Assembly (NCBI GenBank): GCA_964448115.1
Contig: CAYUVA010000017.1
Span: 1-64,000, forward strand
DNA length: 64,000 bases
Direction: 5' to 3'
Source: an uncultured bacterium
GTDB taxonomy: Bacteria > CAYUVA01
Part shown: positions 1,977 to 57,529 of the stretch, piece after piece
Numbering within the stretch: the stretch's first letter is position 1
Layout: each line of letters begins with the position of its first letter
Translations under genes and position numbers: made by a program
The notes under the pieces: model-generated
Told to the model about the DNA's origin: nothing
Seen by the model: only the letters and a program-made list of their open reading frames with translations
Database searches by the model: none

Positions 1977-2029
1977 TGTCATTCCCGCAGCCCCTTCTGT
2001 CATTCCCGCGCAGGCGGGAATCCAGTTCC
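1977..2029 (+). repeat. TGTCA-tagged palindrome (ATTCCCGC...GCGGGAAT, dRS3/REP-like) preceded by a 21-nt partial copy
   Basis: TGTCATTCCCGCAGCCCCTTC (1977-1997) then TGTCATTCCCGCGCAGGCGGGAATCCAGTTCC (1998-2029); the latter is 30/32 identical to 13768-13799. Confidence 0.8.
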
Positions 2030-2112: not shown

Positions 2113-2211
2113 GAGTCTGTCTCAAAATTCCCCAACATGTCATTGCGAGGAGTCCCGATAATTCGGGACGACGAGGCAATCTTCGTTATAATCAATAAGA
2201 TAGAGATTGCT
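2113..2211 (+). mobile_element. Truncated MITE-like composite: IS-like left end plus TGTCA-tagged REP-like palindrome
   Basis: GAGTCTGTCTCAAAA (2113-2127) is identical to 56240-56254. TGTCATTGCGAGGAG-[TCCCGATAATTCGGGA]-CGACGAGGCAATC (2138-2181) matches the reverse complement of the repeat downstream of the GIY-YIG gene. Partial inverted copy GAGATTGCT at 2203-2211. Confidence 0.65.
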
Positions 2212-2262
2212 CCAGGAACTGGTTCACATAAGAACCAGTTGAATACCTACCGAGCCACTTTC

Positions 2263-13744: not shown

Positions 13745-14342
13745 GGGGGTGGACATAGCTTTCCAACTGTCATTACCGCGAAGGCGGGAATCCAGTTCCT
13801 ATCAACACTTACTTTGTGATCAAAATCAATTCTTCAGATCTGCCCAAGCCTTTTCTCAATTGACATTTATAGGTGGCTTCAATATTTTAAGATCTCGAGG
13901 TATTCTGATAGAAGGAAGAAATGCCGATGATGTAGCCGAGCGTTATCTGGGGGGATTTTACGCCAAGATGTACCTATCGCCATTGGATTTGCATTATGTA
14001 ATTTTCCCCTGTAACGGCGAAGTGGTAGGGAGTCTTCATTCGCCGGGAAGCGCTTTGCCGGTCATATTCTACAGATCTGCTGACATAAAGAATGAAAGAT
14101 TGACCACCGAGTACAAAACGCGCTTTGGCTTTAACATGCTGATCGCGATGATCGGCTCCTTCGCGGTCAATGCCATAGAGCGAAATTACCAGGTTGGCGA
14201 GAGCTACTCGCAGGGGGATATCCTGGGCAGGTTTCTGATCGGCTCCACGGTGCTGTTGATCTTTCCACCCGATTCAGCGGAGATGCTTATCAAGGTAGGC
14301 AAGAAGGTGAAGCTCTACCAGCCGCTAATCAAGCCGATATAA
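13734..14342 (+). pseudogene. psd: Phosphatidylserine decarboxylase C-terminal fragment (probably 5'-truncated)
   Basis: YLSPLDLH, KNER and GRFLIGSTV (self-cleavage GST motif) are present. The N-terminal SPxDG region is absent, and the first ~55 codons are non-homologous and include a REP-like palindrome. Confidence 0.6.
13768..13799 (+). repeat. TGTCA-tagged palindrome (dRS3/REP-like)
   Basis: TGTCATTACCGCGAAGGCGGGAATCCAGTTCC, 30/32 identical to 1998-2029. Confidence 0.8.
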
Positions 14343-14362: not shown

Positions 14363-17035
14363 ATGAATGAAAATGATATGAAGGATCAATCCGACTTCCC
14401 AAGAGATCCATTTCAAATATTGGATCCGGAAATAAGATGGGTGCCGTCTGCAAAAGAGCTGAAAGAAAAAGCTTATGATCACTTATTACCCCCTTTAGTG
14501 CATAAGATCCGTATTCAGGTTAAACAATGGCGGGATTTTAGGTATAGAGGCGCTTCGCCAACCTCGATTGCCCTGTTGAATTACTGGTTTAATACCGAAC
14601 ATAAGAACGGAGATGATTACTTTCAGTACTATTTCGCTCAGCGAGAAGCGGTTGAATCGGTAATATATTTATATGAGGTTGCAAAGGCTAGAGAAAAACA
14701 TGAACTAATCCAATTTGATTCATCAGAGCGAGTTAGCAAGGGTATGTTTCTAGGTAACTGGACTCGCTATGTTATAAAAATGGCGACAGGAACTGGAAAA
14801 ACTAAGGTAATTAGCCTTGTTTTGGCTTGGTCTTATTTCCATAAATTATATGAAGAGGATTCAGATCTTTCCAGAAATTTCCTTATAATTGCACCGAATA
14901 TTATAGTCTTAAACAGACTTAGAAAAGATTTCGATGATCCTACTATCTTCAGACAAGACCCAATTATCCCCGAAAATGGATATCAAGATAGAGATTGGAG
15001 AAATGATTTCCAGTTAACTTTGCATATACAGGATGAGCTAAAGCCTATAACAGGTGAAGGTAACCTCTTTCTTACCAATATTCATAGAGTTTATCTGAAT
15101 GAGCCATTTGCTACTATCGAAGAGGAATTTCTTGGCAAGAGACCTGCACCGGATGCTGATACCTCAAAGGGTGCTGACCTAGGCAAAGTTGTAAGAAGCG
15201 ATAAGATCAAAGACCTTGTCGTGTTCAACGACGAGGCACACCATATTCATGATGAACAATTGCAGTGGTTCCAAAGCATCGAGGATGTTAATAATCAGAT
15301 GAAACTGAAGACTGGGCATGGGATCGCACTTCAATTGGATACGACTGCGACACCAAAACATTCAGATGGATCTATCTTTGTGGAAACAATATGTGATTAC
15401 CCTCTCGTAGAGGCTATCAGACAGAATGTGGTGAAATCACCAGTATTGCCGGATGAGGTATCCCGAGCAAAAATAACTGAACAGACATCGGATAAGTTCG
15501 TCGAAAGATATAAGAATTTTATTGAACTAGGATATATTGAATGGGAGCAACAATATGAGGAACTTAAGAACCATAAAACACCCATCCTCTTTGTCATGAC
15601 AAATGTAACTAGCGAAGCTGATGAGACAAAAGAATATCTGGAAAGAATATATCCTAAGCTCAAAGGAGCTGTTCTAGTAATCCATACGAATAGAAGTGGC
15701 GATATTTCAGAAAGTGGATCAACCAAAAAGAAAAAAGAAGAACTGGAAAAACTGAGGGAAGCAGCAGATAACATAGACTCTGACCTCTCAAAGTACAAAG
15801 CAGTTGTATCTGTGATGATGCTCAGAGAAGGATGGGATGTTAAAAATGTAAGCACCATCGTAGGATTACGCCCCTATGGATCACCTGCAAGGATACTGCC
15901 GGAACAAACCCTAGGCAGGGGTTTGCGAAAGATGTTCGGCAGAGATGTAAAAGAAGAATTGGTGGTAGTTGGAACACCTGCTTTCATTGAATTCGTTGAA
16001 TCGATTAAAACCGAAGGGGTTCAGCTTGGCTACAGAAAAATGGGACCTAATGTCAAATCACAACAGCCTTTGATTATCGAAGTAGATTCCGATAATGCAA
16101 ATAAAGATATAGATAAACTTGATATTCAGATCCCAATTTTAACATCTCGAATATATAGAGAATATAAGAATCTTGAGGAAATTGATGTATATGCAATGAA
16201 AGTTGATCCTTTAACATTAAATGAATATACAGAAGAAGAACTTAAACAAATAATATTTAGAGATATCGACGATAATATCTCTCATACAACAGTTTTTTCC
16301 GATGCAAACATAGACTATAGGAATGTTATCGGTTTTTTCACTCAAAGCATAATGAAAGAAAACCGACTGGTAAGTGGATTTAATATCCTTTATCCGAAAG
16401 TGGAAGTATTTATTCGTATGAAACTATTCGGTAAAGAAGTTGACCTACAAGATCGACAGATAATTAGAAACCTTTCTGAAATAAATACAAGGGTTGCCAT
16501 TTTTACTGCTTTCAAAAATGCTATCAATGAGTTAACAATTAGAGATAAGGGTTCTGCTGAAGTTCGTAACTTTATTTCTTTGAAAAATACACGGCCAACT
16601 GTAGTTAATAATCAAAGATATCTAATACCTCAAAAAAGCATATTTAATAAAATAGTTGGAGATAGCGATTTTGAGCTTGAATTTGCTGCTTTCCTTGAAC
16701 AATGTAATGATATTATATCTTTTGCAAAAAACAATGAAAAAATTGTATTCAAAATAGAATACCAGGCTGATGATGGGAATATAAAATTATTTATACCTGA
16801 TTTCTTTGTTAAGGCAACCGAAAATGAACATTATATTATTGAGACAAAAGGAAGAGAAGATTTAGATGATATACGAAAAAGAAATCGCCTTATAACCTGG
16901 TGTAATGATGTGAACCATGTACAGGATAAAATTAAATATAATCCTCTTTATGTAAAACAAGAAATATGGGAAAAATACCGAGATAGCTTAAAGAACTTTA
17001 GAGATGTTATAGGGCTGGGAAAAATTAATGAATAA
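14363..17035 (+). CDS. res: Type III-like restriction enzyme Res subunit (SF2 helicase plus PD-(D/E)XK nuclease)
   Basis: YYFAQREAVE, MATGTGKT, DEAHH, TATP, LREGWDVKNV, EQTLGRGLR; C-terminal FIPDFFV..IIETKG; AT-rich. Confidence 0.88.
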   Translation: MNENDMKDQSDFPRDPFQILDPEIRWVPSAKELKEKAYDHLLPPLVHKIRIQVKQWRDFRYRGASPTSIALLNYWFNTEHKNGDDYFQYYFAQREAVESVIYLYEVAKAREKHELIQFDSSERVSKGMFLGNWTRYVIKMATGTGKTKVISLVLAWSYFHKLYEEDSDLSRNFLIIAPNIIVLNRLRKDFDDPTIFRQDPIIPENGYQDRDWRNDFQLTLHIQDELKPITGEGNLFLTNIHRVYLNEPFATIEEEFLGKRPAPDADTSKGADLGKVVRSDKIKDLVVFNDEAHHIHDEQLQWFQSIEDVNNQMKLKTGHGIALQLDTTATPKHSDGSIFVETICDYPLVEAIRQNVVKSPVLPDEVSRAKITEQTSDKFVERYKNFIELGYIEWEQQYEELKNHKTPILFVMTNVTSEADETKEYLERIYPKLKGAVLVIHTNRSGDISESGSTKKKKEELEKLREAADNIDSDLSKYKAVVSVMMLREGWDVKNVSTIVGLRPYGSPARILPEQTLGRGLRKMFGRDVKEELVVVGTPAFIEFVESIKTEGVQLGYRKMGPNVKSQQPLIIEVDSDNANKDIDKLDIQIPILTSRIYREYKNLEEIDVYAMKVDPLTLNEYTEEELKQIIFRDIDDNISHTTVFSDANIDYRNVIGFFTQSIMKENRLVSGFNILYPKVEVFIRMKLFGKEVDLQDRQIIRNLSEINTRVAIFTAFKNAINELTIRDKGSAEVRNFISLKNTRPTVVNNQRYLIPQKSIFNKIVGDSDFELEFAAFLEQCNDIISFAKNNEKIVFKIEYQADDGNIKLFIPDFFVKATENEHYIIETKGREDLDDIRKRNRLITWCNDVNHVQDKIKYNPLYVKQEIWEKYRDSLKNFRDVIGLGKINE

Positions 17036-17315
17036 AGCATATTTTGTATATATAATGACTAATAAGAATAATGCTGTTCTTTATACTGGAGTAACCAATA
17101 ATCTAAAACGAAGAATCTATGAACATAAAAATAAAATAATTCAGGGATTTACAAGCAGGTATAATATTGTGAAGCTCGTTTATTATGAAATGTATAATGA
17201 TATTTACATGGCAATTAACCGGGAAAAGCAGATTAAAGCAGGTCCAAGAAAGAAGAAAATTGATTTGATTAATGGCATGAATCCTGAGTGGAAGGATTTA
17301 TACGATGGTTTATAA
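17028..17315 (+). CDS. Small stand-alone GIY-YIG nuclease (YhbQ/UPF0213-like)
   Basis: FVYIMTN..VLYTGVTNNLKRRIYEHK, AINREKQIK, NPEWKDL; start overlaps the end of res. Confidence 0.9.
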   Translation: MNKAYFVYIMTNKNNAVLYTGVTNNLKRRIYEHKNKIIQGFTSRYNIVKLVYYEMYNDIYMAINREKQIKAGPRKKKIDLINGMNPEWKDLYDGL

Positions 17316-17331
17316 TGAGATTATGAGATAT

Positions 17332-17784
17332 GAGATTGCTTCGTCGCTACGCTCCTCGCAATGACAATGGCGTGAATGGTTGCTTCNNNNNNNNNNNNNN
17401 NNNNNNNNNNNNNNNNNNNNNNNNNNNNNNNNNNNNNNNNNNNNNNNNNNNNNNNNNNNNNNNNNNNNNNNNNNNNNNNNNNNNNNATCCCATTGTACTG
17501 TTATGGAGATTGCTTCGTCGCTACGCTCCTCGCAATGACAATGGCGTGAATGGTTGCTTCCCCCTTTCACTGTCATTGTGTCCCCCCACCTTGTCATTGT
17601 GTCCCCCCACCTTGTCATTGTGTCCCCCCACCTTGTCATTGCGAGCAAAGCGAAGCAATCCCATTGTACTGTTATGGAGATTGCTTCGTCGCTACGCTCC
17701 TCGCAATGACAAAGAAGGGAACCTCAATGACAAAGAATGGACTCGCAAAGACAACGAAAGGAACCGCGTTGGCAAAGAAGGCTT
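17332..17784. repeat. Array of TGTCA-tagged REP-like palindromes with 21-bp tandem flanks (contains assembly gap)
   Basis: Identical 35-mer GAGATTGCTTCGTCGCTACGCTCCTCGCAATGACA at 17332, 17506 and 17677 (171-bp period); inverted partner TGTCATTGCGAGCAAAGCGAAGCAATC at 17634; TGTCATTGTGTCCCCCCACCT x3 (17571-17633); degenerate 21-mers 17701-17784. Confidence 0.9.
17387..17486. other. Assembly gap (100 N) inside the repeat array
   Basis: Run of N flanked on both sides by copies of the 171-bp unit, so probably a collapsed tandem repeat. Confidence 0.95.
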
Positions 17785-17861
17785 GGGCATTGATGGACAT
17801 AATATCAAACAAATATGATATAATATTCGGTAACTACCACAAAAGAAAGGAACAATAAAAA

Positions 17862-20800
17862 ATGACAAAAATAAATCTTACCGATAAAGAAAAGGAAATC
17901 TTAATCAGCTACATCAAACAAGGTAGAGCAATACCCAAGAAATATATATACAAACTCTATGCCGACCAGGAGGATGTCTTCCTGTTCTGGAATGGTAGAA
18001 ATGAGAATGTAATAAACGCAGTCCTTCCATTCCACTCCATCGAACATATAGACGAACCCAGAGAGGATTCATCCGTCAATCCACTGCTCGACTCAATGAC
18101 CGGCAGGCAGATTAAAGGCTGGACAAACAAGCTGATCTGGGGCGACAACAAGCTGGTGCTATCATCGCTAGTCAACGGACCAATGCGCGAGGATATCGAA
18201 AGAGAAGGCGGACTCAAGCTAATCTATATAGATCCGCCGTTCGCTGTCGGAGCTGACTTCTCGCACAACATCAAAATAAACGGAGAGGATGTTACCAAGA
18301 AGCAATCGGTCATCGAGGAGATAGCCTACAGAGATACATGGGGCAGGGGGATATCTTCATACCTGACAATGATGTACGAGAGATTGAAGCTCATGCACCA
18401 ACTGCTCGCAGAGGATGGGAGTATTTATGTGCACATAGATTGGAGAATCAATATCTATATGAGGTTGATACTAGATGATATCTTTGGCAAATATAATTTC
18501 AACAGAGAGATTACATGGAATACAGGATGGCCATTAGGATTTAAAACCTCTACAGATAATTGGATAAAACAACATGATACAATCTTTTATTATAGGAGAA
18601 ATAATAATTATTATATTTTTAATAAGCAATATATTCCGTATGAGATAGATTACCAAAAACGAGCTAGGAAGGATCCTGATGGGAGATTATGGGTTGATCA
18701 AAGTTTGGGTTATATCTCTGATGAAAAATTAGAACAAATGAAAAAAGAAGGAAGAGTTTTCCGGACCAAGAGAGGTGGCTGGAGGAAAAAACAATATTTG
18801 GATGAGATGCCGGGATTAATGGTTGGTGATATATGGACAGATATTGATCCTATAAATTCACAAGCATCTGAGAACCTCTTTTTCCCCACCCAAAAGCCTG
18901 AAGCTCTTTTAGAGCGTATCATCAAGGCATCCTCTAATGAGGGTGATCTGGTAGCTGATTTTTTCTGTGTTGCTGCGGGGACGAGAGTGTTGGTGCAATC
19001 CCCCACCCCAGCCCTCCCCGTGAACGGGGAGGGAGCAGATTCCCCCCCGTTCACGGGGGGGATCAAGGGGGGGGGATATTCCCCCCCGTTCACGGGGGGG
19101 ATCAAGGGGGGGGGATATTCCCCCCCGTTCACGGGGGGGATCAAGGGGGGGGATATTGCCCCCCGTTCACGGGAGGGATCAAGGGGGGGGATATTTCCCC
19201 CCCGTTCACGGGAGGGATCAAGGGGGGGGATATTTCCCCCCCGTTCACGGGGGGGATTAAGGGGGGGGATACTCCCCCCCCCACATTCCAACGAAAACAT
19301 ATACCTCCTCAACATAGAACAAATCCAACCTGGCGACTATGTTTTTTCGCATGATGGTTTTGCCCATAAAGTTATCAGAACAATCTCAAGGCAATACAAA
19401 GGATTGATGATCGGCATAAAACATAATCTAACTGATTCCACGCTTTGGTTAACGGCAGATCATAAGGTTTTAGCAAAAATTCGCCCTCGTACTTTAGGCG
19501 GAAAGCGTGATTGGAGTGCTGGTCCAATTGAAAATCTGGATCGTAGAAAAAAGCTGAGGAATAAGGCAACTGAAACTGAGAGGCTTTTATGGAAAAGAAT
19601 ATGCAGCAGACAATTGGGTTATAAATTTCGAAGACAACATCCAATTGGACCGTATATTGCTGATTTTTATTGTCGAGATGCCCATTTGGTAGTCGAACTT
19701 GATGGAGATTCACATTTTACCCCTGAATCGAAAGTTTATGATAACGAGCGAGATTTGTACATGGAATCACTTGGCATAGAAGTGATACGGATAAATAATT
19801 CAGAGGTAAAACATAACATTGAGGGAGTACTTCAAGTGCTTTATTCTAAATGTGTTGAGAGATGTGAATCAAAAGAAGATGCCAAATGGGTCGAAGCACG
19901 CAATCTTAAGCCTGGTGATTTAGTTTTTTGGGGAATTGAGCAAGAGTCATTAGAAATCAAGTCGATTGAAAGGAAATACACTGAAGAATGTGTTTATGAT
20001 ATTGAAGTGAATGATTCGCACTCATTCATTACCGATGTTTGTACGGTTCATAATTGCGGTTCAGGGACTACAGCAGCAGTGGCAGAGAAGCTGGGTCGCA
20101 AGTGGATCGCTTGTGATCTGGGACGCTTTGCCATACATACGACACGAAAACGAATGATTCAAGTCCAGCGCGAACTGAAGGCGGAAGGTAAGAATTTCCG
20201 CGCCTTTGAGGTGCTGAATCTAGGTAAATATGAGCGTCAGTTTTTTATGGGGATACCCGCCGATATACCCAAGGATCAACAGGAACAACTTCTTGCGGAA
20301 AAAGAAGAAAAGTATATCAAACTCGTATTGGAGGGTTACTCTGCACAACCGATCAAAGGTTATCGATTATTGCATGGTAAAAAATCAAATCGAATGGTTC
20401 ATGTCGGTCCTCTAAGCGTCCCAGTAACTAAAACATTGGTTGAAGAAATCTTCAACGAATGCAAAGAAAAACTTGTAACTCAGGTCGATGTACTCGGATT
20501 CGAGTTCGAGATGGGATTAGTTCCATTCATACAAGATGAGCTACAAAAAGAAGGAGTTTCAGTCAGATTCAGGAGCATACCAAGGGAAGTTTTCGATAAA
20601 AGAGCAGTGGAAAAAGGACAAGTCAAATTTTACGATGTTGCTTATCTTGAAGTACAACCTCATATCATCGGTCGAAAAGTCAAAATTGAGCTAACTAATT
20701 TCGTAACTAATTATACGCAAGATGATCTGGAAGAGTTGGAGAAGAGTCTTAAAAAAGGCAGTTCTAAGGTAATAATTGAAGATGGAAAAATTATCAAATT

Positions 20801-21128
20801 GAGCAAGGATAAAAATGGAATTCTGCAAAGAGAACTTTTAACTGATAACTGGGTAGATTGGATTGACTATTGGGCGGTTGATTTCGATTATCAAAATAAA
20901 AAAGAGATTATCCGAATAGGTAAGAATGGAGCAGATAAAGAAATATGGACAGGTAATTATATATTTGAAAATGAATGGCAATCTTTCAGAACAAAAAAGA
21001 ATCCAAATATTGAACTTATAACTTCCTCACATCTTTATGACAAACCTGGGAATTATAAAATTCTTGTAAAAGTGGTGGATATCTTAGGCATTGATACCTC
21101 AAAGATAATTGAGATCAATCTTGTTTAG
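17862..21128 (+). CDS. mod: Type III-like Mod subunit, beta-class amino-methyltransferase, intein-containing
   Basis: NKLIWGDN, motif IV LIYIDPPF, PTQKPEALLERII, motif I DFF/CGSGTT split by an intein; predicted spliced product 725 aa. Confidence 0.9.
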   Translation: MTKINLTDKEKEILISYIKQGRAIPKKYIYKLYADQEDVFLFWNGRNENVINAVLPFHSIEHIDEPREDSSVNPLLDSMTGRQIKGWTNKLIWGDNKLVLSSLVNGPMREDIEREGGLKLIYIDPPFAVGADFSHNIKINGEDVTKKQSVIEEIAYRDTWGRGISSYLTMMYERLKLMHQLLAEDGSIYVHIDWRINIYMRLILDDIFGKYNFNREITWNTGWPLGFKTSTDNWIKQHDTIFYYRRNNNYYIFNKQYIPYEIDYQKRARKDPDGRLWVDQSLGYISDEKLEQMKKEGRVFRTKRGGWRKKQYLDEMPGLMVGDIWTDIDPINSQASENLFFPTQKPEALLERIIKASSNEGDLVADFFCVAAGTRVLVQSPTPALPVNGEGADSPPFTGGIKGGGYSPPFTGGIKGGGYSPPFTGGIKGGDIAPRSREGSRGGIFPPRSREGSRGGIFPPRSRGGLRGGILPPPHSNENIYLLNIEQIQPGDYVFSHDGFAHKVIRTISRQYKGLMIGIKHNLTDSTLWLTADHKVLAKIRPRTLGGKRDWSAGPIENLDRRKKLRNKATETERLLWKRICSRQLGYKFRRQHPIGPYIADFYCRDAHLVVELDGDSHFTPESKVYDNERDLYMESLGIEVIRINNSEVKHNIEGVLQVLYSKCVERCESKEDAKWVEARNLKPGDLVFWGIEQESLEIKSIERKYTEECVYDIEVNDSHSFITDVCTVHNCGSGTTAAVAEKLGRKWIACDLGRFAIHTTRKRMIQVQRELKAEGKNFRAFEVLNLGKYERQFFMGIPADIPKDQQEQLLAEKEEKYIKLVLEGYSAQPIKGYRLLHGKKSNRMVHVGPLSVPVTKTLVEEIFNECKEKLVTQVDVLGFEFEMGLVPFIQDELQKEGVSVRFRSIPREVFDKRAVEKGQVKFYDVAYLEVQPHIIGRKVKIELTNFVTNYTQDDLEELEKSLKKGSSKVIIEDGKIIKLSKDKNGILQRELLTDNWVDWIDYWAVDFDYQNKKEIIRIGKNGADKEIWTGNYIFENEWQSFRTKKNPNIELITSSHLYDKPGNYKILVKVVDILGIDTSKIIEINLV
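18999..19282 (+). repeat. In-frame poly-C/poly-G hairpin array inside the intein (one inverted unit plus six ~39-bp tandem units)
   Basis: Unit TCCCCCCCG-TTCA-CGGGGGGG-ATCAA-G8/9-ATAT starting at 19041, 19080, 19119, 19157 and onward; preceded by the inverted form CCCTCCCCG-TGAA-CGGGGAGGG. Confidence 0.92.
19542..19850 (+). other. DUF559 (Vsr-like) endonuclease domain within the intein
   Basis: RRKKLRNKATETERLLWKRI..LGYKFRRQHPIGPYIADFYC..LVVELDGDSH..YDNERDLYMESLGIEVIRINNSEV..NIEGVL. Confidence 0.9.
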
Positions 21129-55176: not shown

Positions 55177-55504
55177 TCGCTCCCTAATTGATTACTGATA
55201 CCGTTTTACAAAAAGAAATTAATTTTTTATCAAAAAGCATTCAACATCCATACCCACATCGGGCAATCTGATTATTACGAGTATCTTTTATCACAGTAAA
55301 AAATAGAAGACAACCTCGCATAAGGAATTCTTCGTGTTAGTCGATCATGTAGGTTACGGTTATTTTGCTCTCCTAGAACAATTCCAACATAAATTGTGCT
55401 ATCATTACTCACGGTCGGTCTTTTATTAACATAAAGTGAGTAATGAACCTTACGGTTCGATTCTCGATACCCTGTTCAGTATTACTCCTATGAACGGTTT
55501 TAAG

Positions 55505-56176
55505 ATGGACTCTAAAGGCAAAAAGTGCAGCCATCGCGGTTTTACCCTGCTAGAGCTTCTGGTTACGATCGCTATAGCTGGGCTTATCTTCAGTATCGTG
55601 TATGTAACTTTATTTCAGAGTATTAAGGTACAGCAGGATGTCATTGAAAGCCGGCGCAGCTATCGTCTCATACAGATGATATTGCACCAAGTTTTCTATG
55701 ATCTGCTCTGCGTTTACTCAGTTGAGCCTTATGAACAAATGCCGCTTATTGGCAGGTCGAATGTAATGGGAGACCGAAGGTATGATTCGATCGTTTTCAC
55801 TGCCGCAAACAATTATCCTGGCTACGGGCGTTTGCGAGGCTCAGACCTGGTGGAGACAGCCTACTACTGTCGTGAAAGCGAAACAGAGAACAAGGGTGAT
55901 GAAAGGGGAAAGGGGCTATTTGTTCTTTATAAACGCATCCAATCGCCACCTGCCGAGCCGTATGATTCCGGCGGTTATGCATTCGACTTTACTGATAAGA
56001 TACTTGAGTTTAAGCTAGAATATTTTGACGGAGAATCCTGGCGTGATGAATGGGACTCGGCTCTCATGCAGCGCCTGCCTAGACAGATCAAGGTTACAGT
56101 AACATTAGCCAACGAACAAGAGAATGAGATTCGTCTGTCAACTACTGTGGAACTACCTCTAACACACGATATATAG
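55505..56176 (+). CDS. gspJ: Type II secretion minor pseudopilin GspJ-like
   Basis: Prepilin cleavage site G|FTLLELLVTIAI; C-terminal YFDGESWRDEWDS..LPRQIKVTV; ORF track start is 55436. Confidence 0.8.
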   Translation: MDSKGKKCSHRGFTLLELLVTIAIAGLIFSIVYVTLFQSIKVQQDVIESRRSYRLIQMILHQVFYDLLCVYSVEPYEQMPLIGRSNVMGDRRYDSIVFTAANNYPGYGRLRGSDLVETAYYCRESETENKGDERGKGLFVLYKRIQSPPAEPYDSGGYAFDFTDKILEFKLEYFDGESWRDEWDSALMQRLPRQIKVTVTLANEQENEIRLSTTVELPLTHDI

Positions 56177-56214: not shown

Positions 56215-56448
56215 CCCTCACCCCAGCCCTCTCCCAGCAGAGTCTGTCTCAAAATGTCCAAGAAGTCCCATACCCTGTCATTCCGAGCGAGCGAGTCGAG
56301 GAATCCCCTCCCCCTATTTTCCCCCCAAGTTGGGGGAAAGAGATCCCTCGACTTGGTCCCTTTTTAAGAAAAAGCGGGACTCCGCTCGGGATGACACGGT
56401 GTGAGGGTTTTGAGGCAGACTCCTTTTGGGAGAGGGTTAGGGAGAGGG
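56215..56448. repeat. Outer C-rich/G-rich inverted repeat enclosing a MITE-like element
   Basis: CCCTCACCCCAGCCCTCTCCCA (56215-56236) vs TGGGAGAGGGTTAGGGAGAGGG (56427-56448): 19/22 complementary; shares CACCCCAGCCCTC with the intein array (19004-19016). Confidence 0.75.
56240..56422. mobile_element. 183-bp MITE-like element with IS-like 15-bp terminal inverted repeats carrying a TGTCA-tagged palindrome pair
   Basis: GAGTCTGTCTCAAAA ... TTTTGAGGCAGACTC (14/15 inverted match); inside are TGTCATTCCGAGCG..GAGGAATC (56276) and the inverted AGATCCCTCGAC..CGCTCGGGATGACA (to 56396). Confidence 0.75.
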
Positions 56449-56503
56449 CATTTTTAAGCAAACAACTTCAAAATACTTAAGTTAATAGCATTAGGCTTAA
56501 GGC

Positions 56504-57529
56504 ATGAAGGAAAAAGTAAGGATAAGGATAAGGACAAGGACAAGATTGAATAATCGACGGTCTAAAGGCTCTCAGGATAAGATAGGGACAATCCTCAAGC
56601 ATCTAAAAAAGCATAACGGGGTCGCAGTCTTACTGGTGCTTCTCATCGTAGCGGTGATGACCTCCATGGCGGTGCGTTTTGCATACCTGGTGCGCTCAGA
56701 TTTGAATATGGTGGAGAACCTTGGGTCATCGCAGCGGGCATATTATCTGGCAAAATCAGGCATCTATGCGGCAGCACGATATCTTCGCATGGACAATCCG
56801 CAAATAGATCACCTCGGCGAATACTGGGCTTCAGAGCCTCTAAACATCGCTTTCGACTACGGCGAGGCTTCGCTTAAGGTCATAGATGGCGAAAGGAAGC
56901 TGGGTGTAAACAAGGTGCTGAATAAAAACGATGTCATTGATGAATGGTATCAAGAGGCTTTGATGCGCGTCTTCGAGATGATCGGCTTGGAGCCGATGAG
57001 CGTCGATGTCATCCTCGATTGGATAGATAAGGATGATTATCCGCGTCCCTATGGCGCAGAGTCGGAGTACTACGGTAGCCTACCTCAGCCTTATGACCCG
57101 CGCAATGCACCGATGCTAACTGATATGGAGCTGCTGTTGCTCAAGGGGATAACGCCTGAAATATATTATCCCAGGGAGGAGCTTCCCTGTCTTTCGCAAC
57201 TTATCACCGTCAATTCAAGCGGTAGCATAAATATCAATACGGCTTCGGAGCTTGTCCTTAGATCCATGGATGAGGGGATTACCGAGTCGATTGCACAGAA
57301 TATCATCAATTATCGCGCTGAAAATCCCTTCCAGTCCCCCATTGATCTAAAGAAAGTTCCTGGTATCGATGACCGCATATATGGCAATCTGGTGGGAAGG
57401 ATCCGGGTCTTTAGCGAGTACTTCGAGATCCGATCCACCGGGATCGTCTCCGGGCTGGAGAGAACCATCAAGGCAGTGGTGCATCGCCAGGGGAACCAAG
57501 TGAAAATAATATACTTCAGGGTAATCTAG
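56504..57529 (+). CDS. gspK: Type II secretion minor pseudopilin GspK
   Basis: G|VAVLLVLL, QRAYYLAKSG, DHLGEYWA, ILDWIDKDD..GAESEYY, ININTAS, helix-hairpin-helix; true start may be downstream. Confidence 0.88.
   Translation: MKEKVRIRIRTRTRLNNRRSKGSQDKIGTILKHLKKHNGVAVLLVLLIVAVMTSMAVRFAYLVRSDLNMVENLGSSQRAYYLAKSGIYAAARYLRMDNPQIDHLGEYWASEPLNIAFDYGEASLKVIDGERKLGVNKVLNKNDVIDEWYQEALMRVFEMIGLEPMSVDVILDWIDKDDYPRPYGAESEYYGSLPQPYDPRNAPMLTDMELLLLKGITPEIYYPREELPCLSQLITVNSSGSININTASELVLRSMDEGITESIAQNIINYRAENPFQSPIDLKKVPGIDDRIYGNLVGRIRVFSEYFEIRSTGIVSGLERTIKAVVHRQGNQVKIIYFRVI

Follow-up and report, generated by a model that had tools for sequence, protein, structure and literature searches.

How does a single restriction-modification (R-M) operon come to house two small nucleases, each beside its own family of hairpin repeats, and what have nuclease and repeat to do with one another? 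The question is raised by positions 14363-21128 of a 64,000-nt stretch of DNA from an uncultured bacterium (assembly GCA_964448115.1, contig CAYUVA010000017.1; the whole stretch is called the window here), where an open reading frame (ORF) map and a Pfam scan reveal three co-oriented genes: res, a GIY-YIG gene and mod. The region is a type III-like R-M operon that holds two nuclease-plus-hairpin modules. We consider it highly probable that this operon has been colonised twice by such modules, one made up of an SsnA-family GIY-YIG nuclease with an array of GCGAG-type repeats, the other of an intein that combines a DUF559 endonuclease domain with an array of BoxC/PIT/TM-type repeats. The original prediction, made from the letters of the window, had envisaged nuclease-plus-palindrome units that operate without a RAYT and that have both entered a defence locus. 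The location is as predicted, one module occupying the res-mod junction and the other mod itself, and each nuclease is associated with its own repeat family across genomes; the novelty of the GIY-YIG half does not stand, however, as the pairing of GIY-YIG nucleases with Ssn-related motifs (SRMs) was published in 2025. For the DUF559 half, which is here embedded in an intein, a literature search with subscription journals outside its coverage found no account linking DUF559 to BoxC/PIT/TM repeats. The principal features of the operon are the following.

14363..17035, plus strand: res, type III-like restriction subunit of 890 aa (Pfam ResIII, E 5.6e-16, and RE_endonuc)
17028..17315, plus strand: ssnA-family GIY-YIG gene of 95 aa (Pfam PF01541 GIY-YIG, E 2.6e-16; single domain, residues 5-75)
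17862..21128, plus strand: mod, N6/N4 DNA methyltransferase of 1088 aa, interrupted by an intein (Pfam N6_N4_Mtase, E 2.9e-38, in two stretches)
18966..20054, plus strand: intein of 363 aa at motif I, between DFF and CGSGTT, with Cys1 at its start, His-Asn at its end and Cys+1 after it
19539..19850, plus strand: DUF559 (Vsr-like PD-(D/E)xK) domain at the usual position of an intein endonuclease (Pfam PF04480, E 4.9e-30)

The association of DUF559 with hairpins emerges from a survey of 151 phylogenetically scattered genomes, 46 of which (the present one included) gave 87 matches to PF04480. Outside the present genome there were 86 matches, and 69 of these, from 39 genomes, were analysed as loci, 17 partial or low-scoring ones being left out. 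A scan for C-arm/G-arm hairpins within 150 nt, with one mismatch allowed, placed a hairpin upstream of DUF559 at 39/69 loci, downstream at 43/69, on both sides at 28/69 and on either side at 54/69; the corresponding control figures are 3/112 for the ends of other ORFs at these loci and 27/2437 for random windows, so that the enrichment that had been predicted for DUF559 genes is borne out. The scan misses stems that have long loops or contain G (visible by eye, for example, at loci L028, L059 and L074), and it replaced an earlier, strict perfect-stem scan that under-called hairpins (16/29 and 17/29). Each nuclease family has its own repeat type: C/G hairpins are found at 2 of 20 ssnA-like loci, and SRM-type sites at 4 of the 69 DUF559 loci. 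The two ends of a locus also resemble one another, since an upstream flank compared with its own inverted downstream flank reaches a median score of 34, as against 17 for the flanks of other loci, and the own-flank score lies above the 95th percentile of non-cognate pairs at 43 of 67 DUF559 loci. In comparisons between genomes, the more similar two nucleases are, the more similar their flanks tend to be (Spearman 0.34, with 0 of 500 permutations as high), which is the co-variation of repeat and nuclease that had been expected. Stand-alone DUF559 cassettes occur in many phyla and are delimited by inverted ends consisting of C-arm/G-arm/G-tail units; this DUF559 unit, a hairpin plus a G-tail, fits the published TMECO pattern. 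Several hairpin-ended cassettes furthermore lie in frame, without being part of an intein, within large R-M-like ORFs (L032, L034, L047 and L085). Judged by eye, the flanking translations of L034, L047 and L085 resemble type I HsdM/HsdR and type IIG-like methylases.

In the present genome DUF559 occurs only once (104.1 bits against a cut-off of 20.6), and not as the small free gene that had been supposed: Pfam resolves the mod ORF into a split N6_N4 methyltransferase domain, DUF559 and weak intein-splicing matches, and DUF559 is an intein endonuclease domain that shares this one ORF with the C/G-run hairpins. The predicted spacing of about 260 nt does hold, the domain starting 259 nt after the C/G tandem array. 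At the boundaries, Mod reads DLVADFF before the intein and CGSGTT after it, while the intein itself runs from CVAAGTRV to CTVHN, so that the residues of splicing are present (C at intein residue 1, a terminal VHN and C at +1). Alignments with relatives of mod cover residues 1-368 and 732-1088 and pass directly from the one segment to the other, and residues 368 and 732 are contiguous in 54/54 related loci that hold both halves. Profile searches gave 20.1 bits for TIGR01443 intein_Cterm (cut-off 15.6) and 22.5 bits, under the cut-off of 35.8, for Pfam Intein_splicing. An AlphaFold2 (AF2) model built on 31 sequences has a mean pLDDT of 78.7, with values of at least 90 for most of residues 1-12 and 110-363, and Foldseek matches it with probability 1.00 to the RadA, RecA, DnaB and gp41-1 inteins and to BIL domains. 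The DUF559 domain resembles PDB entry 3hrl (sequence E 1.4e-17; Foldseek TMt 0.87) and the Vsr-like homing endonuclease I-Bth0305I (3r3p; TMt 0.76). The insert in mod has, as modelled, a HINT fold together with a Vsr-like endonuclease domain, and it is predicted to splice. In the alignment of 31 intein sequences 15 columns are invariant, all of them in DUF559 bar G146, namely R198, E205, W209, F221, R222, Q224, H225, D233, F234, E244, D246, G247, D259 and R275.

This intein is a recurring type. Ninety-one cluster representatives match it at E 1e-30 or better, and of the 26 scanned, 7 are N6_N4 methylases whose profile match is interrupted at position 188-190. It was found in 2 of 400 other genomes, all related to this organism at domain level only, and 0 of the 80 res loci related to the present one contain a match. 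A contiguous DUF559 intein was not found described in the literature, where DUF559 and intein are brought together in one passing mention (subscription journals again being outside coverage). In genome G109 (contig C34, loci L252/L032) a single methylase-like frame of 1485 aa carries an intein-type DUF559, 48% identical to the present intein, and another DUF559 about 1 kb beyond it, the latter with TM-type hairpin flanks directly in frame and no intein.

The hairpins of the present intein form two elements.

19000..19036, minus strand: TM/BoxC-like unit, hairpin CCCTCCCCG-TTCA-CGGGGAGGG (-11.1 kcal/mol) plus G-tail GGGGTGGGGG
19039..19280, plus strand: tandem array, 39 nt x 6.3 (score 413), of hairpin plus G-tail units (TCCCCCCCG-TTCA-CGGGGGGGA-TCAA-GGGGGGGG), in frame

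Together they begin 24 nt into the 5' end of the intein and are translated in frame, and the C/G array corresponds to a low-confidence loop in the model (residues 29-109, pLDDT <50), which appears disordered. In the available part of Holder et al. (NAR 2015, PMC4666352) the TMECO pattern is given as CCCTCNCCC N3-6 GGGNGAGGG N3 GGGNGAGGG. The intein units have this architecture, a C-stem, a loop of 3-6 nt, a complementary G-stem, a loop of about 3 nt and a second G-stem. Literal CCCTCNCCC stems are absent from them and present in other copies such as that at C7:106879, an exact match to the TMECO pattern; folding calculations model duplex hairpins only, and a triplex formed by TM units is putative. 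Genome-wide there are 54 TM-like records, which are strand-specific and fall into several subfamilies, and both subfamilies of the intein are also represented elsewhere (contigs C1, C4, C5, C33 and C46), with further copies of the 19000-19036 unit at C1:71706 and C5:113767/113809. The string CACCCCAGCCCTC, correctly named beforehand as shared between distant C/G-run hairpins, lies at 19004 and 56219 in the window and has 6 copies in the genome, and CCCCCCGTTCACGGG has 13 copies, 6 of them in mod. At C46:20440-20960 and C4:62940-63030 there are arrays of half-units, each a left hairpin arm plus a T/C-rich stretch with a complete hairpin at the end only, an arrangement that points to slippage at the hairpin or to copying aborted there.

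A repeat array at this point of the intein is not peculiar to the present genome. All 10 intein family members in which both landmarks could be located have a Pro/Gly-rich insert of 29-112 aa after block A. Two genomic relatives, G271 and G109, show the same order at the DNA level, one C-head unit followed by tandem G-tail units, and in another member (P0093) hairpin-like segments directly flank DUF559 on both sides, inside its intein.

The first module has a characterised counterpart. According to the accessible part of Chenal et al. (Nat Commun 2025, PMC11893778), SsnA, a single-domain GIY-YIG enzyme of 94 aa assigned to the cd10448 family, cuts only single-stranded DNA (ssDNA), next to the NTS hairpin CGTCATTCCCGCGMAVGCGGGAATCYRG; 71% of SsnA homologues have an SRM nearby and 42% have SRMs on both sides. 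The same authors already point to the insertion sequence (IS)-like look of NTS-ssnA-NTS and draw the comparison with RAYT/REP, and what they report for SsnA is cleavage of ssDNA and an effect on transformation, not transposition. The 95-aa GIY-YIG gene of the window, to judge from its sequence, belongs to the SsnA family, and the adjoining TGTCA-headed palindromes would be SRMs. The gene starts before res has ended, with an overlap of 8 nt between its ATG and the res stop, and the genome contains one other GIY-YIG match, inside a frame of 615 aa. A search of solved structures returned weak matches only (best GIY-YIG 1zg2, E 0.12), and NCBIfam has no specific model for the protein. When homologues and their flanks were taken from 11 other genomes, the closest were seen to be bracketed by inverted TGTCATT-type arms: homologues of 54-57% identity carry TGTCATTCCCGCGAAAGCGGGAATCCAG and its inverse on either side, for example just 5' of the start codon and just 3' of the stop, and one of 68% identity has GCGAG-type arms on both sides. 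The closest 80 metagenomic relatives (59-74% identity) show a forward GCGAG arm upstream in 44 cases, a reverse arm downstream in 46, both in 31 and either in 59. In genome G038 three ssnA-like copies (L010, L011 and L012) with identical protein and inverted ends of about 60 nt each lie within ends of a different repeat type, and look like a recently active unit.

Downstream of ssnA, the 546 nt that separate its stop from the start of mod are taken up by repeats, broken by 100 N.

17332..17366, minus strand: GCGAG-type SRM-like arm TGTCATTGCGAGGAGCGTAGCGACGAAGCAATCTC (GAGATTGCTTCG...CTCGCAATGACA), starting 16 nt after the ssnA stop
17387..17486, no strand: run of 100 N
17506..17540, minus strand: GCGAG-type arm, second copy; all 3 genomic occurrences of GATTGCTTCGTCGCTACGCTCC are at this array
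17571..17641, plus strand: tandem 21-mers x 3.4, 100% matches, each headed by TGTCATTG
17634..17711, no strand: 78-nt stretch containing a REPIN-like doublet of two inverted GCGAG-type arms (76 nt, 17635-17710)
17700..17781, plus strand: degenerate 21/42-nt tandem repeats derived from the arm end (CGCAATGACAAAG...)

The TGTCA-tagged palindrome foreseen 16 nt behind the GIY-YIG gene is the arm that starts at 17332. As DNA, the stretch 17634-17711 folds with -24.5 kcal/mol (z -7.27), and 0 of 200 shuffles fold as well. On both strands of the genome GTCATTGCGAG occurs 20 times, and 5 of these occurrences adjoin the GIY-YIG gene. The GCGAG variant extends the motif space of the published SRM, and the published supplementary lists may already include it. 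The units at 17571-17641 consist of the SRM head TGTCATTG followed by TGTCCCCCCACCT, the head being duplicated without the remainder of the arm. We read the N run as a scaffold gap within the repeat array, which is thus visible only in part; the distribution of such runs over the assembly (seven of 100 N, ten of 10 N) agrees with this reading. In this genome, four of the seven longer runs are located in or adjacent to SRM/TM arrays (C17:17387, C33:30076, C46:20730 and C66:4026), which makes the repeat copy numbers in this assembly lower bounds.

The res product unites a ResIII helicase with an endonuclease domain and has 80 relatives of 46-69% identity; Res and Mod are adjacent and co-oriented, and the pair is kept in 54 related loci. 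ssnA is an insertion into this operon: it is missing from all 80 related res loci, and in 12 of 43 res-then-mod loci no more than 60 nt separate the end of res from the first aligned residue of mod; the close junctions inspected have a TAATG overlap or a spacer of 9-22 nt. At 26 of the 43 loci the junction exceeds 400 nt and holds other cargo. As far as translations judged by eye allow, this cargo includes PIN, GxxExxY, BrnT/BrnA-like, Fic-like and large ATPase-like proteins, and in one locus (L110) a RayT-like Y1 transposase. In another relative (L118) a solo TM-type unit, CTCCCTCTACCTTGATGGGAGAGGGTTGGGGTGAGGG, stands in the junction directly 3' of the res stop.

Several known systems invite comparison. 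REP sequences and REPINs are short hairpin repeats, dispersed and often arranged as inverted doublets, that flank in inverted orientation a single-copy RAYT gene (Y1, IS200/IS605-like). The modules described here likewise place a nuclease gene between inverted copies of a dispersed hairpin repeat, but no Y1 transposase was found in the genome, the nucleases have GIY-YIG and PD-(D/E)xK folds, the repeats lack a GTAG head and one repeat type possesses a third, triplex-type block. With SsnA/SRM the first module shares a single-domain GIY-YIG protein of about 94 aa, GTCATT-headed, oriented hairpins inverted around the gene and dispersed copies without a gene, including canonical NTS-type copies at 1998 and 13768 in the window; it differs in the GCGAG-variant arms, which fall outside the published pattern, in the missing upstream arm and in the translational overlap of the gene with res inside an R-M operon. 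The intein units share with BoxC/PIT/TMECO the three blocks (C-stem, G-stem and second G-stem, with loops between) and the dispersed as well as clustered occurrence. They depart from it in their CCCCCCC/GGGGGGG stems, used in place of CCCTCNCCC, in being translated in frame and in that, here and in 39 other genomes, units flank DUF559; in the part of Holder et al. available, the authors state that they found no transposase or integrase remnants near TMECO sites, and DUF559 goes unmentioned (PMC4666352). From the portion of Taylor et al. (NAR 2011, PMC3239194) at hand, Vsr-like EDxHD endonucleases such as I-Bth0305I occur as separate ORFs between the halves of split inteins, in group I introns or free-standing. 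The present DUF559 domain is structurally similar to that enzyme, and the HINT fold with an endonuclease between the splicing lobes and the insertion into a conserved catalytic motif are those of a homing intein; unlike the EDxHD enzymes, DUF559 is fused within a contiguous intein, its host is a DNA methyltransferase and a repeat array follows block A. The operon itself is like type III R-M in its adjacent and co-oriented Res (helicase plus endonuclease) and Mod (N6/N4 methyltransferase), and unlike it in the order res then mod, in the nuclease gene and repeat array between them and in the intein of mod.

What, then, moves the repeats? In the 94%-complete genome there are 0 matches to Y1_Tnp (PF01797), a search whose control was positive in 6 of 14 known genomes, and profile searches found no TnpB, DDE_Tnp_1 or rve; none of the 35 other window ORFs scanned belongs to a transposase family, in agreement with the claim that neither a transposase nor a RAYT is visible there. 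We infer mobilisation by either nuclease along the following lines. By analogy with the biochemistry of its homologues, SsnA would bind its own hairpin in ssDNA and cut beside it. Each nuclease may nick at its cognate hairpin, DUF559 at its TM units, and nicking could promote the copying of both the gene-bearing unit and the gene-less hairpins. The DUF559 of the intein might in addition serve as a homing endonuclease against intein-free mod alleles. More broadly, we put forward tentatively, as a possibility to be taken seriously rather than as the expected answer, that DUF559 nucleases are the missing partner enzymes of BoxC/PIT/TM repeats. They would form a third nuclease-plus-hairpin mobile class after RAYT-REP and Ssn-SRM, of which one lineage would have been recruited by an intein as its homing endonuclease, the intein retaining its own 5' TM array and targeting motif I of DNA methyltransferases; on this view the R-M operon would suffer parasitism on three levels simultaneously, those of DNA, of protein splicing and of repeats.

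A number of observations weigh against the explanation as a whole. One ssnA and one DUF559 gene face repeats that number in the dozens and fall into several subfamilies; about 35 copies of NTS type (24 of the GTCATTCCCGC, 8 of the GTCATGCCCGC and 3 of the GTCATTCCCGT group) and three further TM subfamilies have no cognate gene in the assembly. The genome is a 94%-complete draft, and IS and RAYT genes often go unassembled, so the negative searches leave room for unassembled elements. The published SRM pattern (used as HGTCWYN(0-2)YYVSBRHN(0-5)WNVSBRGN(0-2)RNCYNB) has 35 matches genome-wide where about 22 are expected, and it does not match the arms beside ssnA, which are of the GCGAG variant (GTCATTGCGAG...GAAGCAATC). 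A single GCGAG arm folds no better than its shuffles (-2.5 kcal/mol, z +0.98), and at this locus ssnA has no upstream arm. Among the 80 metagenomic relatives, arms of the opposite orientation are also common (28 upstream, 40 downstream), as are arms more than 300 nt away (0.21 per 130 nt, both orientations, the loci being short), which makes this control a weak one. The co-variation of flanks with DUF559 would be equally expected from simple co-inheritance of a cassette. In G271, finally, the TM subfamily of the intein is found inside the intein only.

The causal direction could be the reverse of the one proposed, the repeats being spread by a host-encoded or other route and the nucleases being homing-type parasites, or domesticated tools, that target them, with SsnA for instance a restriction factor for incoming ssDNA as in Neisseria. 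The function published for SsnA in N. meningitidis, modulation of transformation and not transposition (PMC11893778, in the part available), agrees with this, as do the repeat subfamilies without cognate gene and the position of the nuclease genes in the loop between two arms, where a gene that had homed into a palindrome is expected. The matched pair of ends at each locus, which co-varies with the nuclease, and identical multi-copy gene-plus-end units such as the three of G038 fit movement of the whole unit instead, while still being compatible with homing; on balance we hold the reversed direction to be unlikely, if well short of negligible. That nucleases and hairpins merely happen to be neighbours, as generic REP-like hairpins accumulating in dispensable DNA, is very improbable. 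Both kinds of repeat do occur far from either gene, and the res-mod junction of relatives does collect varied cargo, but chance co-location is contradicted by the DUF559 counts (54/69 loci against 3/112 control ORF ends), by the cross-control, with its repeat type specific to each nuclease family, and by the ssnA-arm counts, and the SsnA statistics in the accessible part of Chenal et al. point the same way (PMC11893778).

For the intein, the hairpin array might be a passive passenger, a slippage-prone low-complexity insert in a surface loop, and DUF559 an ordinary homing endonuclease only. The array maps to the disordered loop, the number of tandem units varies (6 here, 3 in G271 and G109), and the confinement of the G271 units to the intein, with none dispersed elsewhere in that genome, fits a passive passenger as well as it fits a functional partner. 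Slippage in a tolerant loop sits less easily with an insert at exactly the same loop in all 10 family members, with a first unit that differs between the present genome and G271 at 3 of 36 positions shown (manual comparison), at nearly the same intein position, while the intein proteins are 51% identical, with array units of the very type that flanks stand-alone DUF559 genes, and with the P0093 intein, where such segments adjoin DUF559 on both sides. We regard a passenger array as rather doubtful, though far from far-fetched.

Catalogues of BoxC/PIT/TM repeats date back to the 1990s and cover E. coli, cyanobacteria and hundreds of further genomes; to our knowledge no enzyme has been associated with the repeats, and we know of no function assigned to DUF559, a very large family. 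Their pairing hints at what spreads these long-unexplained repeats and, if it is true and specific, makes both questions testable by simple nuclease and mobility assays, much as dRS3/NTS became testable after the discovery of SsnA. With the intein form, the known repertoire of inteins gains a fused Vsr-like endonuclease, and this form also offers a compact natural construct for testing the pairing, with nuclease, cognate repeat array and a defined homing site in one. The SsnA part, for its own part, shows nuclease-hairpin modules living inside defence operons.

Relatives of both repeat kinds are scattered through the rest of the window.

1998..2025, plus strand: canonical NTS-type SRM TGTCATTCCCGCGCAGGCGGGAATCCAG, fitting the published SRM pattern, with a partial copy at 1978
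2138..2215, plus strand: GCGAG-type arm with a nested hairpin, then a truncated inverted arm
13768..13795, plus strand: NTS-type SRM variant TGTCATTACCGCGAAGGCGGGAATCCAG (-7.8 kcal/mol, z -3.6)
56215..56452, no strand: nested composite; outer TM-type unit CCCTCACCCCAGCCCTCTCCC ... GGGAGAGGGTTAGGGAGAGGG, next a GAGTCTGTCTCAAAAT inverted pair, next a TGTCATTCCGAGCG doublet, innermost a TTCCCCC hairpin

TGTCA-headed relatives of the ssnA arms had been anticipated at 1998-2025, 2138-2182, 13768-13795 and 56276-56396 and are present at all four places, and the copy at 2138, compared with the 17332 arm in reverse complement, does have the 15 nt TGTCATTGCGAGGAG in common with it and agrees at 12 of 13 3' nt. 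The other coordinates and shared strings named beforehand, those of the C/G-run hairpins included, were likewise confirmed. The 1998 copy agrees with the published NTS consensus at 27 of 28 positions (manual comparison) and folds with -9.7 kcal/mol (z -5.5). Full versions of the 2138 element, 92 nt long, stand at C1:105677 and C2:58718. In the composite, the 56276-56397 portion folds with -33.5 kcal/mol (z -6.7), and there is a TM-like record at 56319. The four repeat families of the composite lie each in the loop of the next, and the whole is placed between two pseudopilin-like type II secretion genes (55436-56176 and 56504-57529).

The motifs of the window are far above chance in the genome as a whole: GTCATTCCCGC has 40 copies on both strands, the chance expectation for an 11-mer being about 2 in 7.95 Mb at equal base frequencies. 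The full published NTS consensus has 0 exact matches in the genome, because the copies here start with T and not C. A scan for hairpins after GTCAT was set aside; it returned 165 sites, mostly due to chance, and the real families are the GTCATTCCCGC, GTCATGCCCGC and GTCATTCCCGT groups alone. Rfam at gathering thresholds matches one tRNA and nothing else in the window, so that none of the repeats falls into a curated RNA family. The genes for lipopolysaccharide transport and type II secretion in the window point to a diderm bacterium.

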